DNA from: a virus
Length of the DNA: 19,405 nt
UHGV virus genome: UHGV-0147800
Direction: 5' to 3' (one strand)
Shown here: positions 8,687 through 13,018 of the stretch, one piece after another
Layout of the letters: each line of letters starts with the position of its first letter
How positions within the stretch are numbered: the first letter of the stretch is position 1
Program-made: the position numbers and the translations under genes
The notes under the pieces: model-generated
What the model saw: only the letters and a program-made list of their open reading frames with translations
The model's database searches: none
Told to the model about the DNA's origin: nothing

Positions 8687-8819
8687 TCTTTGGGACTCCT
8701 GGCTGATTAAGTATGTCGATAAGGCGTTTCCATCCGTCACGTAATTTACGGGTGATTCGTTCAAGTAAAGATTCGGAAGGGCAGCCAGCAACAGGCCACC
8801 CTGCAATGGCATATTGCAT
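8679..8819 (-). CDS. cIII: CIII (FtsH inhibitor stabilising cII)
   Basis: ATG at 8817-8819 with SD AAGGAG. Product MQYAIAGWPVAGCPSESLLERITRKLRDGWKRLIDILNQPGVPKNG matches recalled lambda CIII over its whole length, though 46 aa versus about 54. Confidence 0.85.
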   Translation of the reverse strand: MQYAIAGWPVAGCPSESLLERITRKLRDGWKRLIDILNQPGVPKNG

Positions 8820-8880
8820 GGTGTGCTCCTTATTTATACATAACGAAAAACGCCTCGAGTGAAGCGTTATTGGTATGCAT

Positions 8881-9040: not shown

Positions 9041-9664
9041 TTATGCGACCTCGGAAGGAAGTCCAATCATCTTATTCAAATCTTCTACCCGTAAAGCAGG
9101 AAGTGCTGTACTTGCTTTATCTGCTTCTTTTGGTAGCAACTCTTTGCTTTCAGGCCAAACTTCAATAAGTCGCTTAACTGTTGTGACTGAGTTCAAAGCA
9201 GCCCATACATTTGATTCGATATCCTTTTTCTTGGCTTCAAGTTTTTGTTGCAATGCGCAGATTTCATCAAACCTTTTTGTTATTTCGTGTTCTGCGCTAA
9301 ACATGCATTTATCTTTGGTCGGAGTAGGGAGCAATATATCTTCGCCGTTGCCGTCTTTCCCATATGAATACCAGCCAACCCTTCTGCCAGATACAGTCAG
9401 ATAAATTGAAGTTGAACGGGCATCGCATGAGTAAAATGAACATCCCAGCTTTTCAAGTTCTTCGCTTATAGCCATTAACTTGGATGATAACTGATCCACT
9501 TCCTCAGTTTTCTTTTTACCGCCAAACGCAACAACTCTGGCGTCAAGTGCAAGCTGGTTCTTTAACTTTGTTACTTCTTCAAGCTCAGTGAAAACCCCAG
9601 ATTTAATTAAAGCGTTACGAGCGATTTTCTCTTTCATTCTCGTAGTTAAGCGGATTGATGACAT
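9041..9664 (-). CDS. Hypothetical protein (207 aa) in the ral/sieB-equivalent slot just downstream of N
   Basis: ATG at 9662-9664 preceded by GAGAGGAA. Product MSSIRLTTRMKEKIARNALIKSGVF... is soluble with no recognisable motif. The track ORF extends 20 codons further upstream without an RBS. Confidence 0.7.
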   Translation of the reverse strand: MSSIRLTTRMKEKIARNALIKSGVFTELEEVTKLKNQLALDARVVAFGGKKKTEEVDQLSSKLMAISEELEKLGCSFYSCDARSTSIYLTVSGRRVGWYSYGKDGNGEDILLPTPTKDKCMFSAEHEITKRFDEICALQQKLEAKKKDIESNVWAALNSVTTVKRLIEVWPESKELLPKEADKASTALPALRVEDLNKMIGLPSEVA

Positions 9665-9675
9665 ATTAATTCCTC

Positions 9676-9998
9676 TCAAATAAGTGGTTTGCTGCCTAAT
9701 TTCATTTTCTGGCGACCAACACAAGTCATCTTGCTGTCAGTTGTTTGGATTTCCGGTAGCCTGCCGCGTAAAGAGCTACATTTGGAAGACAAGTTGAGCC
9801 TTCATATTTTCTGGTCAACGTTGTCAGTGTTATTACTTCTGCTCTCATTGCTGGTTTGCGCTTGCATTGCAAGACCACTCGAGAGGGGGTTGGTCTGTGT
9901 AGCTTGTCGGAGCTAATCGCCTCCTGACTTTGCAGGTTTGCGCGACGAGCTCTACGACGAGAAGCTGAGGTGCCTTTAAATTCTGTTTTTCTGGACAT
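9676..9998 (-). pseudogene. N: N-like transcription antiterminator, apparently frameshifted
   Basis: ATG at 9996-9998 with SD GGGAGGAA. N-terminus MSRKTEFKGTSASRRRARRANLQSQ carries an arginine-rich motif like lambda N. The in-frame ORF stops at 9726, but the conserved N C-terminus (MTCVGRQKMKLGSKPLI, compare lambda GITCSGRQKIKGKSIPLI) is encoded in the -1 frame ending at TGA 9676-9678, just before the RBS of the next gene. Confidence 0.55.
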
Positions 9999-10096
9999 AG
10001 ATTCCTCCCGAATAAACTTTGGTGATGCAATCTCGAAGCTCCTCCTGAGACGGTTGCTTCGGCATTGCATCCCACAGCTTATGTGGTTGGGTGATC

Positions 10097-10142
10097 TGGC
10101 TTTTCAGCCACGTAGTCGAGAGTCGACGTTGTTTAAAGAGCC
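10097..10142 (-). promoter_or_regulatory. nutL (boxA plus boxB-like hairpin)
   Basis: Minus strand has boxA-like GGCTCTTTAAAC (plus 10131-10142), an intervening hairpin GTCGA-CTC-TCGAC, and a boxB-like hairpin TGGCT-GAAA-AGCCA (plus 10097-10110). Same three-part layout as downstream of cro. Confidence 0.5.
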
Positions 10143-10189
10143 TGCCAATCTTTTCCGTTTGGCTACCAGCGTCCTGCTGATGGAAATAA

Positions 10190-10250
10190 TAGTCACATAT
10201 TGTGATTTAATGGTCAATCACAAAATGTGTAAAATAAGGGTGTGACACGT
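10190..10250 (-). promoter_or_regulatory. oL/pL operator-promoter region
   Basis: 22-bp palindrome TGTGATTtaatggtcAATCACA at 10201-10222 and motif AATCACAAAATGTGT, both shared with the cI-cro intergenic region. Candidate leftward promoter TTGACC-17-GACTAT (compare lambda pL TTGACA/GATACT). Confidence 0.5.
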
Positions 10251-10470
10251 TATGTGTATGATTTTTTTGTGTAAATAGTTTTCCCCGCGATGGGTTTGCT
10301 TACTTAAGGCGGGGGAAACAGCAGGATGGTGTGCTGAAAAGTTCGAAAAACGAGCGAAGTAGGTGGTGACGAGATGGCGGGATATGGGAGTTGTATTAAG
10401 AATTATAGTAATTTAATCAGAGGCTTGGGCTGGCTGGCAGGTGCTGTCCTGATAGTTATGTGCAGGCAAC

Positions 10471-10502: not shown

Positions 10503-11123
10503 TTAATGCTGGGGAGTGATTTTTTTGTTGTCTGTTGGCTGGGTATTTTGTGGCGGCGCTTGCAAAGTGGAAGGCTGTTGCAAAGGTGCGTGGTCTGACT
10601 TTAAAGCTGATACCAGCCCGGGAATCGCAACTATTACAGCGATAATGACACTAAAAATGGCTAATCGTATAGAAATACCCGACTGAACACCACTAATTGC
10701 GGTATTAACCCCTGTTATTTGTCCTTGAATTCCTTCGAATCTCCCATTAATTGCTTTTATATCGCCAGCAGCGCTATCCATCTTTCCATCGATCTTGGAC
10801 GATAGAGAGCTTATGGCTGCATTAAGTGATGCAAATTGGACATTAACGCTTTCACGAGATAGAGCCATGTCAGCCCTAATGGAGGAAGCAATAGACTCCA
10901 TCTCTGCTTTATTAGCAGCTAAGCGAGCATCAAGTTCCTCTCTGCTGATCGTTCCCACTTCTTCCTCCGTTTGTGGCGGTTTTATGTAATTATTTTGCAC
11001 CTTGGTGGGAGAATTATCAAATTCAGCCTCAAAATCAGAACCGCCAACAACCTTCAACCTCCGGCTTTCAGATATGTTGGTGTCTTGCTTTCCATGATTA
11101 TTTAAATTACTGTCGTCACTCAT
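10503..11123 (-). CDS. Hypothetical coiled-coil protein with a single C-proximal transmembrane helix (206 aa)
   Basis: ATG at 11121-11123 overlapping the stop of the upstream gene (ATGA). Polar N-terminus, long heptad-like region, hydrophobic helix LAIFSVIIAVIVAIPGLVSAL, then a Pro/Gln-rich tail. AT-rich compared with cI. Confidence 0.75.
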   Translation of the reverse strand: MSDDSNLNNHGKQDTNISESRRLKVVGGSDFEAEFDNSPTKVQNNYIKPPQTEEEVGTISREELDARLAANKAEMESIASSIRADMALSRESVNVQFASLNAAISSLSSKIDGKMDSAAGDIKAINGRFEGIQGQITGVNTAISGVQSGISIRLAIFSVIIAVIVAIPGLVSALKSDHAPLQQPSTLQAPPQNTQPTDNKKITPQH

Positions 11124-11554
11124 AATAGCTCTACGGTGAAAAATGATTCATTTTTATGAAGTTCATTTTTAGGGTCTTCATTATCTTGCAATATCCCTAT
11201 AACACTATACAGCCCTTTAGCTGGGACCCTAATTTCTTTCAATGTTACTATTACCTGTCCGCCAACCCCTGTTTCAAAATGGCTATCTTTCGTATCGATG
11301 AAAAGTGAAACTGATTCCGAAGAGCCGTCAGGGAATTGAATTTCCTCACCTTTTTTTATAATTAGGTGCGCGGGGATTACCATAATACCCAAATTATATC
11401 TTGAATTTGGTTTCAACCCGATCATACCAACCCTGAAATCAATCGATAGCCGCGCAGGAAATTCATTGCATGTAAAATTAAGCGTCGGTTGGTTGGGTTC
11501 TTCGCTGCTATCAAATGGGGTTATAAAAGATATTCTTTCTAAATTAAGTGCCAT
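11120..11554 (-). CDS. Hypothetical soluble protein (144 aa), first gene after cI
   Basis: ATG at 11552-11554 with strong SD (GCAGGAGAATTT-ATG). An alternative in-frame ATG at 11606-11608 overlaps the cI stop and would give 162 aa. No recognisable motif. Confidence 0.7.
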   Translation of the reverse strand: MALNLERISFITPFDSSEEPNQPTLNFTCNEFPARLSIDFRVGMIGLKPNSRYNLGIMVIPAHLIIKKGEEIQFPDGSSESVSLFIDTKDSHFETGVGGQVIVTLKEIRVPAKGLYSVIGILQDNEDPKNELHKNESFFTVELL

Positions 11555-11604
11555 AAATTCTCCTGCATCGCTGTATGCTCTACGAGCATCTCTGCGACCA
11601 TCCA

Positions 11605-12252
11605 TCATCCAAACGTCTCTTCAGGCCACTGAGCCTTAACTACCTTGCCTATGATGCGGCATGTGTGATCGCAGTCCAGGGTTCTGTATGCCGGATTCAA
11701 TGGAACCAAGTAACTAACCCCTGCATCCTTCTCATACTTCTTGAACGTTGCCTCTGAATCACCATTTGCAGAAGCCACGCAGAAATCCCCAGACTCTACC
11801 GGCTCGGCCGGATCAACGAGTATCAGCATACCCTCAGGAAAACTCGGCCTTACGCCCTGTGGCGCAGTCATAGAATGGCCTTTCACCTCAAGCCAGAAAG
11901 CTTTTTCGCTGGCTTTTGTGGTCGTTGGGACCCATGCCTTTGCATCGCTTGCTGTGTAGCTTCCAACCTCCGAAAACGGCCCGGCCTGCACTGAAGAAAA
12001 TAACGGGTACTCATATTGGCGAAATACAGCGTCTGAATCCTCGCCAAACATTATTTTTGCCGGAGATACGCCGAGTGCCGCCCCAAGAACCAGCGCGTCA
12101 TCCGCGCTAACCTTTCTTGTTCCTAACTCGTAGTTCCCCAGGCGTGAAGGCGCAGCCCAGCCGCAAAGCTTGGCCAATTGAGCCTGGCTAAGTCCTTTAG
12201 CTTCTCTAAGGGACTTGATCCTTTCCCCGATAATTTCATGCATCGTTTTCAT
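11605..12252 (-). CDS. cI: CI-type prophage repressor (HTH plus LexA-like S24 autocleavage domain)
   Basis: 215-aa ORF with N-terminal HTH ([22 protein letters not shown]) and C-terminal S24 peptidase features (Ala-Gly site in VQAGPF, GHSM serine motif, conserved lysine in IGKVVKAQW). Divergent from cro across an operator region. Confidence 0.9.
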
Positions 12253-12360: not shown

Positions 12361-12579
12361 ATGAACAAAATTGCCCAGCAGCGAAAAAAAATCGGAGTTT
12401 CGCAAGCTGTACTGGCTTCGGCAATTGGTTGGGGGCAATCCCGCATCGCCAACTATGAGCTGAATATCCGTACTCCTAGACTTAACGATTGCCGAAAGAT
12501 CGTAGAAGGCCTCAGGAAGTTAGGGTGCCAATGTTCTTTGGATGATGTTTTCCCTCCATCCAGTAACAAAGCCGCCTAA
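12361..12579 (+). CDS. cro: Cro-like HTH repressor
   Basis: ATG at 12361 with SD GGGAGA. 72-aa product MNKIAQQRKKIGVSQAVLASAIGWGQSRIANYE... carries an HTH. The track ORF extends upstream through the promoter from a GTG without an RBS. Confidence 0.8.
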   Translation: MNKIAQQRKKIGVSQAVLASAIGWGQSRIANYELNIRTPRLNDCRKIVEGLRKLGCQCSLDDVFPPSSNKAA

Positions 12580-12587
12580 GCAGTACC

Positions 12588-12633
12588 CGCTCTTTGTAAC
12601 AACGGACATTCGTCCTACGTCGCTGAAAAGCGA
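12588..12633 (+). promoter_or_regulatory. nutR (boxA plus boxB-like hairpin)
   Basis: boxA CGCTCTTTG (12588-12596), small hairpin GGAC-ATTC-GTCC (12604-12615), boxB-like hairpin TCGCT-GAAA-AGCGA (12620-12633). A further hairpin ATGCGT-TTCC-ACGCAT follows (tR1 region). Confidence 0.5.
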
Positions 12634-12689: not shown

Positions 12690-12745
12690 TAACTATTCAC
12701 TATTGGAAATATTAAGAAATGACACAAACAAGTTACAGCAAACTA
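12690..12745 (-). promoter_or_regulatory. Possible pRE-like cII-activated promoter
   Basis: Minus strand inside the cII 5' end reads TTGC-TGTAAC-TTGT, similar to the recalled lambda cII site TTGC-N6-TTGC. No clear -10 was identified. Confidence 0.25.
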
Positions 12746-13018
12746 TCCCAGCGCGACGTTGATCGCGCAGAAACGGATTTACTCATCAACCTGTCAACGC
12801 TTACCCAGCGCGGTCTGGCAAAGATGATTGGCTGTCATGAATCGAAGATAAGCAGAACGGACTGGAGATTTATTGCTTCGGTCTTGTGTGCTTTCGGAAT
12901 GGCATCAGACATCAGTCCGATTAGCAGGGCTTTTAAGTATGCGCTTGATGGACTCACCAATAAAAAACGCCCGGTGTGCAAGACCGAGCGTTCTGAACAA
13001 ATCCAGATGGAATTCTGA
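12719..13018 (+). CDS. cII: CII transcriptional activator
   Basis: 99-aa ORF whose C-terminus ...LDGLTNKKRPVCKTERSEQIQMEF matches recalled lambda CII (...TNKKRPAATERSEQIQMEF). Confidence 0.9.
   Translation: MTQTSYSKLSQRDVDRAETDLLINLSTLTQRGLAKMIGCHESKISRTDWRFIASVLCAFGMASDISPISRAFKYALDGLTNKKRPVCKTERSEQIQMEF

Follow-up and report, generated by a model that had tools for sequence, protein, structure and literature searches.

The window, by which we mean the whole analysed stretch of 19,405 nucleotides from the virus genome UHGV-0147800, carries an early region of lambdoid order: a Nmad5-family gene, N, nutL, a pL-like promoter, a terminator with two ORFs, cI, cro, nutR and cII follow one another, and the cIII thermoregulator lies further left than the Nmad5-family gene. 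The features relevant for this study are the following.

9726..9998, minus strand: N antiterminator gene, 90 aa (Pfam PF25694 N_peptide, E = 1e-31), with the arginine-rich motif TSASRRRARRANLQSQ at approximately residues 10-25 of N
10097..10142, minus strand: nutL, predicted whole site (boxA, structured spacer, boxB), read from 10142 to 10097 as GGCTCTTTAAACAACGTCGACTCTCGACTACGTGGCTGAAAAGCCA
10133..10141, minus strand: boxA-L, GCUCUUUAA, with 0 mismatches against GCTCTTTAA
10132-10127, minus strand: conserved ACAACG 3' of boxA-L
10115..10127, minus strand: nutL spacer hairpin GUCGA-CUC-UCGAC, given by the predicted fold and by compensatory stem families in relatives
10097..10110, minus strand: boxB-L, UGGCU-GAAA-AGCCA, a 5-bp stem with a GNRA tetraloop and a U-A closing pair
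10181..10217, minus strand: putative pL promoter, read by eye (-35 TTGACC at 10217-10212, 17-nt spacer, -10 GACTAT at 10194-10189)
10181, minus strand: putative start of the pL transcript, A
11605-12252, minus strand: cI (HTH and peptidase S24)
12361..12579, plus strand: cro (HTH_3)
12588..12633, plus strand: nutR, predicted whole site, CGCTCTTTGTAACAACGGACATTCGTCCTACGTCGCTGAAAAGCGA
12588..12596, plus strand: boxA-R, CGCUCUUUG
12599-12604, plus strand: conserved ACAACG 3' of boxA-R
12604..12615, plus strand: nutR spacer hairpin GGAC-AUUC-GUCC, the same as the nutR spacer of H-19B, 933W and mEp234
12620..12633, plus strand: boxB-R, UCGCU-GAAA-AGCGA
12719-13018, plus strand: cII

Both sites are composed of the same elements in the same order, namely boxA, ACAACG, a short perfect hairpin, CUACG and a 5-bp boxB with GAAA loop, boxA being present 5' of boxB in a CGCUCUUUAACAA-like form (GCTCTTTAAACAAC at nutL and CGCTCTTTGTAACAAC at nutR). 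Direct reading of the sequence agrees here, in layout and in coordinates, with an earlier note on this DNA, which had described boxA, a small hairpin and boxB in succession. The pattern ACAACG-N8-14-CTACGTNGCTGAAAAGCNA matches nutL and nutR only within the window, with 0.00 matches expected from 200 shuffles, and GCTGAAAAGC occurs twice against 0.09 expected; in the boxB stem, the second pair is changed on both sides, from G-C in nutL to C-G in nutR. According to the ORF map and Pfam assignments, the placement is that of early transcripts: nutL lies between pL and N, with the putative pL start about 40 nt upstream of it and the start codon of N 98 nt downstream, and nutR, located between cro and cII, begins 9 nt past the cro stop codon. 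The previous identification of the two stretches as nutL and nutR is sustained by gene order, by the Pfam assignment of N and by GenBank annotation of homologous spans, where nutR of 933W is annotated over exactly the homologous 46 nt, boxA and boxB of nutR are annotated in mEp234, and a 'putative N-utilization leftward' of VT2-Sakai is 96% identical to nutL of the window. The stretches are nutL and nutR, the predicted RNA landing sites for the N antitermination protein of the prophage, and they are most likely working nut sites. We consider it highly probable that they represent lambdoid-prophage N-utilisation sites of the VT2-Sakai/Stx-phage kind, having NUT architecture of the H-19B/933W/HK97 type and operating in the way proposed below. 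The module is widespread: among 5,426 complete E. coli genomes, 1,167 contain a match to the stretch from N to nutL (window 9700–10300, comprising the N gene, nutL and the pL region), and in 641 the match covers 80% or more of the stretch.

The N gene starts from an ATG at 9998 preceded by the Shine-Dalgarno sequence GGAGGA. The earlier note hinted that N might need repair, which the comparison contradicts: N is an intact ORF of 90 aa, the length of VT2-Sakai N, with 100% identity to many IMG/VR copies and 98.9% identity to N of the Stx phages YYZ-2008, 2851, 1717 and Stx1-converting phage (VT2-Sakai type). An in-frame ATG at 10070, 72 nt upstream of the N start, opens an ORF of 114 aa; the longer form of N is annotated in some GenBank records (AP005153, 345 nt) and would start only 27 nt past boxB-L. 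A PDB sequence search with N gave no match even at E = 10. Immediately to the left, 1 nt past the N stop, begins the Nmad5-family gene (9041-9724, minus strand, 227 aa, E = 6e-71), named for nucleotide modification associated domain 5 and constituting unusual cargo at the position of the ea/ral genes of lambda. Scanning of the window at Rfam gathering thresholds yielded as its sole match the cIII thermoregulator (Lambda_thermo, window 8774-8832, minus strand, 88.5 bits), there being no nut-site family in Rfam. Two ORFs without Pfam match (10503-11123 and 11120-11608, minus strand) occupy, between cI and pL, the position of lambda rexAB and are followed by a strong hairpin resembling an intrinsic terminator (10496-10475).

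The consensus promoter scan of the window does not call pL, and we infer both the promoter and its start from the match of the leader to the annotated pL of phage 21: the stretch from the putative start to boxA, ATCAGCAGGACGCTGG...GGCTCTTTAA (window 10143-10181), is 87% identical to the annotated phage 21 leader. The likeness to phage 21 (compared in L087:3480-3530) ends right after boxA, at what looks like a mosaic junction between a common part with boxA and a specificity part comprising the spacer hairpin, boxB and the N motif. On the other side of nutL, 10 nt past boxB-L, a third small hairpin CCACA-UAAGC-UGUGG followed by GAUG is found (window 10072-10086, minus strand); its counterpart in other N leaders (933W-, lambda- and P22-like) is CCAAAG...CUUUGG followed by GGUGUG, so that this element looks like a covarying stem beside a boxC-like G/U-rich motif.

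For the comparative analysis of the spacer, approximately 290 loci were gathered around diverse N genes, mostly by IMG/VR scans with five different N proteins; a search of genome contigs with the profile of the N alignment gave only 20 loci, and the diversity comes from IMG/VR instead. Every module of the form ACAAYG...CTACG plus boxB was extracted with no pairing filter imposed on the spacer. All 26 distinct spacers (26/26) pair at three or more positions beyond the flanking G-C, and at least six stem families are represented (UCGA/UCGA, GAC/GUC, AUUC/GAAU, GUGA/UCAC, GCGA/UUGC and GGC/GCC), an additional stem AGC/GCU being found in a class whose boxB is of another kind. The hairpin loop drifts freely in length and in sequence among relatives: in the close relatives of nutL the stem is constant and the loop varies between CTC, ACTC, ACAC, GCAC and ATC, and among relatives of the nutR spacer a compensated variant GGGC-ACUC-GCCC is encountered together with wobble variants. 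In the alignment of 60 unique sites, the ACAAYG flank shows little or no variation. Pairing in the spacer helix amounts to 91.7%, with two-sided changes in 4 of 5 pairs; the helix scores 0.715 for covariation, shuffles score 0.147 and none of 500 reaches the observed value, and controls with slid partners stay at or below 0.098. The same two hairpins were returned independently by RNAalifold. Pairs 1 and 2 of the boxB stem covary as well (UA/GC/AU/CG and CG/GC, respectively), although the boxB entries were pre-filtered for five pairs, which makes their covariation partly circular. The folding energy of the two sites is unremarkable in comparison with shuffles (z = -1.1 and -0.9), so that it is the comparison of relatives, and not thermodynamics, that speaks for structure. 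The earlier note regarded the compensatory stem changes between nutL and nutR as an argument for selection on structure and proposed to look for the middle hairpin and for stem covariation in relatives; across the 60 unique related sites this argument holds, the middle hairpin being retained within the family and both stems covarying. Since the spacers pair and covary across related sites, the three-part layout is, on comparative grounds, under selection on RNA structure, and the spacer hairpin appears as the defining mark of a family of sites and not as an oddity of this window.

The middle inverted repeat might be suspected to act as DNA, either as a protein-binding palindrome (GTCGAC is SalI-like) or as an accidental dyad: it is a short palindrome, the folding z-scores are unremarkable, and a consensus scan calls the complement of the nutL spacer hairpin a weak terminator-like site (10115-10127, plus strand). 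Such a function is hardly credible, for a DNA site would conserve sequence and not pairing, whereas the stems of nutL and nutR, and likewise those of various phages, are completely different (UCGA, GAC, AUUC, GUGA, GCGA, AGC), with complementarity and the ACAAYG/CUACG flanks being kept and the loop drifting freely in length and sequence. The G·U pairs observed (GGC/GUC, GCGA/UUGC and AGUGA in boxB) fit the RNA of the transcribed strand only and would become A·C mismatches on the opposite one, which points to pairing at the RNA level, and RNase probing of the H-19B site detected the hairpin in RNA (PMC3526286). As for the terminator-like call on the plus strand, it is trailed by the boxA complement GTTGTTTAAA and in all likelihood arises spuriously from the rules of the scan.

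Another explanation would ascribe the conservation of the spacer hairpin to termination, the hairpin belonging mainly to the site at which Rho is loaded (rut) for tR1/tL1 and not to the N complex. In H-19B, Rho alone does protect the nutR spacer, and the sites of Rho and NusA overlap there (PMC3526286). Yet Rho favours unstructured C-rich RNA, and a rut site would not be expected to conserve a helix; nutL and nutR have this module in common, it recurs in three classes of boxB/N specificity and always at a fixed distance from boxB, and N together with NusA/NusG likewise protects the spacer of H-19B (PMC3526286). We regard a predominantly Rho-related role as quite improbable.

Somewhat more room has to be given to an extended fold of the NUT RNA, in which boxA (GGCUCUUU) would pair with the boxB loop and 3' strand (GAAAAGCC) under the spacer hairpin as a cap, and which would serve as a switch hiding boxA and boxB until they are captured by N or Nus factors. 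Minimum free energies computed by ViennaRNA are in its favour at both sites, -14.3 kcal/mol for the extended fold versus -11.4 for two hairpins at nutL, and -11.5 versus -11.1 at nutR; moreover, the base that precedes GCU in boxA corresponds to the second pair of boxB at both sites of the window (G/C at nutL, C/G at nutR), and the title of Neely and Friedman (2000) contains the words 'alternative NUT RNA structures'. In the family, however, the minimum energy fold keeps boxB in 57 of 71 unique members and the spacer hairpin in 69 of 71, the 14 cases with disrupted boxB being all of the GAAA type. The additional pair between boxA and boxB is not maintained in other nutL lineages, which have CGCU, AGCU or ACGCU before boxB of the UGGCU/AGGCU kind, and nutL of 933W is devoid of any canonical boxA. 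RNAalifold finds only the two local hairpins and not the extended fold, and the order of events during transcription favours local hairpins too, as the spacer hairpin is the sole helix in folded prefixes of 31 and 36 nt. A functional switch of this kind seems unlikely to us, and the modelled extended fold is possibly a local feature of the sites in this window and not a conserved structure. The reading retained below is that of two local hairpins formed in the nascent RNA.

The ACAACG-hairpin-CUACG module is also encountered next to a very different boxB, in L211, L262 and their relatives (e.g., L211:4523-4590, plus strand), where the boxB loop is the 7-nt CGAGAAC, the N motif is different as well (NAKSRRNARRAEEAIKAR) and the boxB stems covary, nutL having GGUGC/GCACC and nutR beginning with GCCAC and being paired as far as read. 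By these sequences, the spacer module looks portable between specificity classes.

The second distinctive trait is the loop of boxB, which is GAAA at both sites of the window and GACAA in H-19B, 933W and HK97-like phages, as in P22. The earlier note contrasted the 4-nt GAAA loop with that of lambda, and the difference stands against all the types compared: GAAAA of lambda, GACAA of P22/H-19B and the hexaloop of phage 21. The loop goes along with the class of the arginine-rich motif. When N has a motif of the class RRRxRRAxLQ, to which this window and Cronobacter-, Pantoea-, Enterobacter- and epsilon34-like phages belong, the loop is GAAA in 102 cases and GCAA in 5 at nutL, GAAA in 83 and GCAA in 4 at nutR, and never GACAA; when the motif is of the class RRRERLKAKALA (933W/H-19B), it is GACAA in 86 cases at nutL and 81 at nutR and never GAAA. 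Near-identical prophages inflate these counts, and a handful of lineages and two hybrids make up the independent events; an attempt to count independent lineages by clustering of N bodies merged everything and provided no number. All loops of the RRRxRRAxLQ class, further tetraloop cases recovered included, are solely GAAA or GCAA and therefore GNRA, and the loci L281-L286 combine GAAA at nutL with GCAA at nutR in one phage.

Both hybrids switch the loop together with the motif and in this respect provide independent tests of the pairing between them. N of the epsilon34 type has a 933W-like body and is accompanied by a 933W-like spacer stem in nutL; its motif is RRRxRRAxLQ and the loop is GAAA. 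The reciprocal hybrid, P0027, carries the N body and the nutL spacer of the RRRxRRAxLQ class with an H-19B-like motif RRRERLKSAAISRG, for which GACAA was predicted beforehand, and its boxB is UGGCC-GACAA-GGCCA at nutL and UCGCC-GACAA-GGCGA at nutR. Inspected by eye, the motif of the window N (S-RRR-A-RR-A-N-L-Q-S-Q-E) resembles the lambda-like T-RRR-E-RR-A-E-K-Q-A-Q-W but is without Trp; in the fetched loci, lambda-like N motifs are associated with GAAAA pentaloops and no spacer hairpin. One IMG/VR prophage (L060) speaks against this matching, as it combines N of the window's type with a lambda-type nutR, CGCTCTTACACATTCCAGCCCTGAAAAAGGGC, located near position 1100 on the strand opposite to N and having a pentaloop and no spacer hairpin. 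This gives a hint of either a mismatched mosaic or a lambda-like motif, in N of the window's type, that tolerates lambda boxB.

Known complexes suggest how such loops may be read: the fold recognised by lambda N is of the GNRA kind and extrudes its fourth base, the U-A closing pair is required and Glu9 may be substituted (PMC12027372), and in P22 the flipped-out C of GACAA contacts the peptide (PMC12550061). We tentatively propose, with more doubt than conviction, that a widespread class of N proteins (RRRxRRAxLQ, no Trp) reads a true GNRA tetraloop without a flipped-out base, that GACAA is read by sister proteins whose differences lie chiefly in the second motif half, and that, by the natural hybrids, this short segment alone sets the specificity for 4 or 5 nt. 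In lambda, the extruded boxB base probably matters for assembly of the NusA-dependent complex. If so, and if the proposal is right, tetraloop phages would assemble the complex without an extruded base, the missing contact being given, perhaps, by the spacer hairpin. Reviews of boxB variants describe pentaloop and hexaloop types only, a search for comparisons of nut sites in Stx phages found nothing relevant, and no description of a native tetraloop boxB was found in the searchable literature, to which the older papers on Stx phages and H-19B do not belong; of the present picture, it is solely the occurrence of a tetraloop in native boxB, strictly coupled to one motif class, for which no prior description was found.

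Taken as a mechanism, the layout would work as follows. Each of the nascent pL and pR RNAs would present a single-stranded boxA running on into ACAAC, then a spacer hairpin of 4-6 bp, for which the invariant G in ACAAYG and the C in CUACG form the clamp, and finally a 5-bp boxB in which a U-A pair closes a true GNRA tetraloop. The boxB loop would be bound by the 90-aa N through its arginine-rich N-terminus, the spacer region by NusA and boxA by NusB/NusE, and the complex tethered by RNA would render RNA polymerase resistant to downstream terminators (tL, tR1). The footprints of N, NusA and Rho come from published work on H-19B and lambda, the spacer being bound by NusA in H-19B (PMC3526286). 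The spacer hairpin most likely plays the part of a rigid insert, or of a portion of the NusA-binding surface, or both; the former role is suggested by the approximately nine nucleotides which remain single-stranded (ACAAC and UACG), near the 8-9 nt of the lambda spacer. The 4-nt loop would be matched to the lambda-like motif of the window N (SRRRARRANLQSQ, with Trp missing where lambda has Trp18) and recognised in a GNRA fold that extrudes no base. Sequence, position, conservation, covariation and the joint variation of motif and loop are results of the comparison; the geometry attributed to the hairpin and the way in which the tetraloop is bound are our deductions.

For annotation, these are ordinary, functional-looking nut sites belonging to a very common prophage module of E. 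coli with intact N. For the study of RNA-protein recognition, the family constitutes a natural specificity series (GAAA/GCAA tetraloop, GACAA, GAAAA and the 7-nt CGAGAAC), which comes with matched arginine-rich motifs and natural hybrids. The comparison lends strong support to the structured spacer first seen in H-19B and offers leads for engineering of N-peptide/boxB pairs and for NusA recruitment, leaving the overall picture of N antitermination unchanged.

Set against known systems, the sites of the window share with lambda nut the boxA, a 5-bp boxB with U-A closing pair and, as predicted for the window, a GNRA-type fold and a spacer bound by NusA; the lambda-like motifs RRRxxRAEKQ of the fetched loci align with the motif of the window N but carry Trp, which the latter lacks. 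They differ in that lambda has a short unstructured spacer and a pentaloop, GAAAA or GAAGA, with flipped-out fourth base, the loop of the window being of 4 and not of 5 nt; the contrast with lambda drawn in the earlier note (GAAAA pentaloop, short unstructured spacer) is in accord with the lambda-type sites found here. The sites of P22 and phage 21 likewise have boxA and, after it, a boxB hairpin recognised through an arginine-rich motif, but no spacer hairpin, with the GACAA loop in P22 and a longer boxB stem with hexaloop in phage 21. The spacer hairpin is absent from lambda-, P22- and phage 21-type sites of the same locus set.

Closer is the correspondence to H-19B and 933W (also to the HK97-like mEp234 and HK106), which have the very order of the window: boxA, ACAAYG, spacer hairpin, CUACG and 5-bp boxB. 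The three-part layout is already described for the Shiga-toxin phage H-19B, whose nutR was seen by RNase probing in RNA as a site of two hairpins (PMC3526286), so that it is not a new architecture, and the view of the earlier note that it is unusual has to be given up in favour of the H-19B/933W NUT type, with the same spans annotated in GenBank (933W, VT2-Sakai). The supplement of the same work lists oligonucleotides antisense to boxA, spacer and boxB of H-19B nutR (PMC3526286); their reverse complements, CACCGCTATTTTCAC, CACAATGGACATTCGTCCTACG and TACGTCGCTGACAAAGCGAGTCCC (RS663 being that for the spacer), include the identical GGAC-ATTC-GTCC hairpin. In H-19B/933W nutR, the spacer hairpin GGAC-AUUC-GUCC and the boxB stem UCGCU/AGCGA are identical to those of the window, the gene context is the same, and the N proteins share their Pfam family and the RNAP-binding C-terminal end CLPNVALYAAGYRKSKQLTAR. 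The H-19B-type NUT is reportedly, by the title of Neely and Friedman from 2000, marked by a smaller need for host factors. The differences concern the loop, GACAA of 5 nt at the place of the 4-nt GAAA, and N itself, which in H-19B/933W has 127 aa and the motif RSRRRERLKAKALANG, in the window 90 aa and SRRRARRANLQSQ, with 41% identity between them; compared with the H-19B-type motif RSRRRERLKAKALA, the second half of the motif is different in the window N. Positions of the mutations R3H, S11F, R15C/P and R18P, which abolish antitermination by H-19B N, are conserved in the window N. NutL of 933W further differs by the lack of canonical boxA and by another spacer stem, AUUC/GAAU. Finally, VT2-Sakai and the Stx1- and Stx2-converting phages (AP000422, AP005153 and others) have essentially the same element with point differences only, nutL of VT2-Sakai being 96% identical over 81 nt and its N 98.9% identical, whereas the immunity region of the window (cI/cro) comes from a lineage other than VT2-Sakai and is mEpX1/HK542-like.
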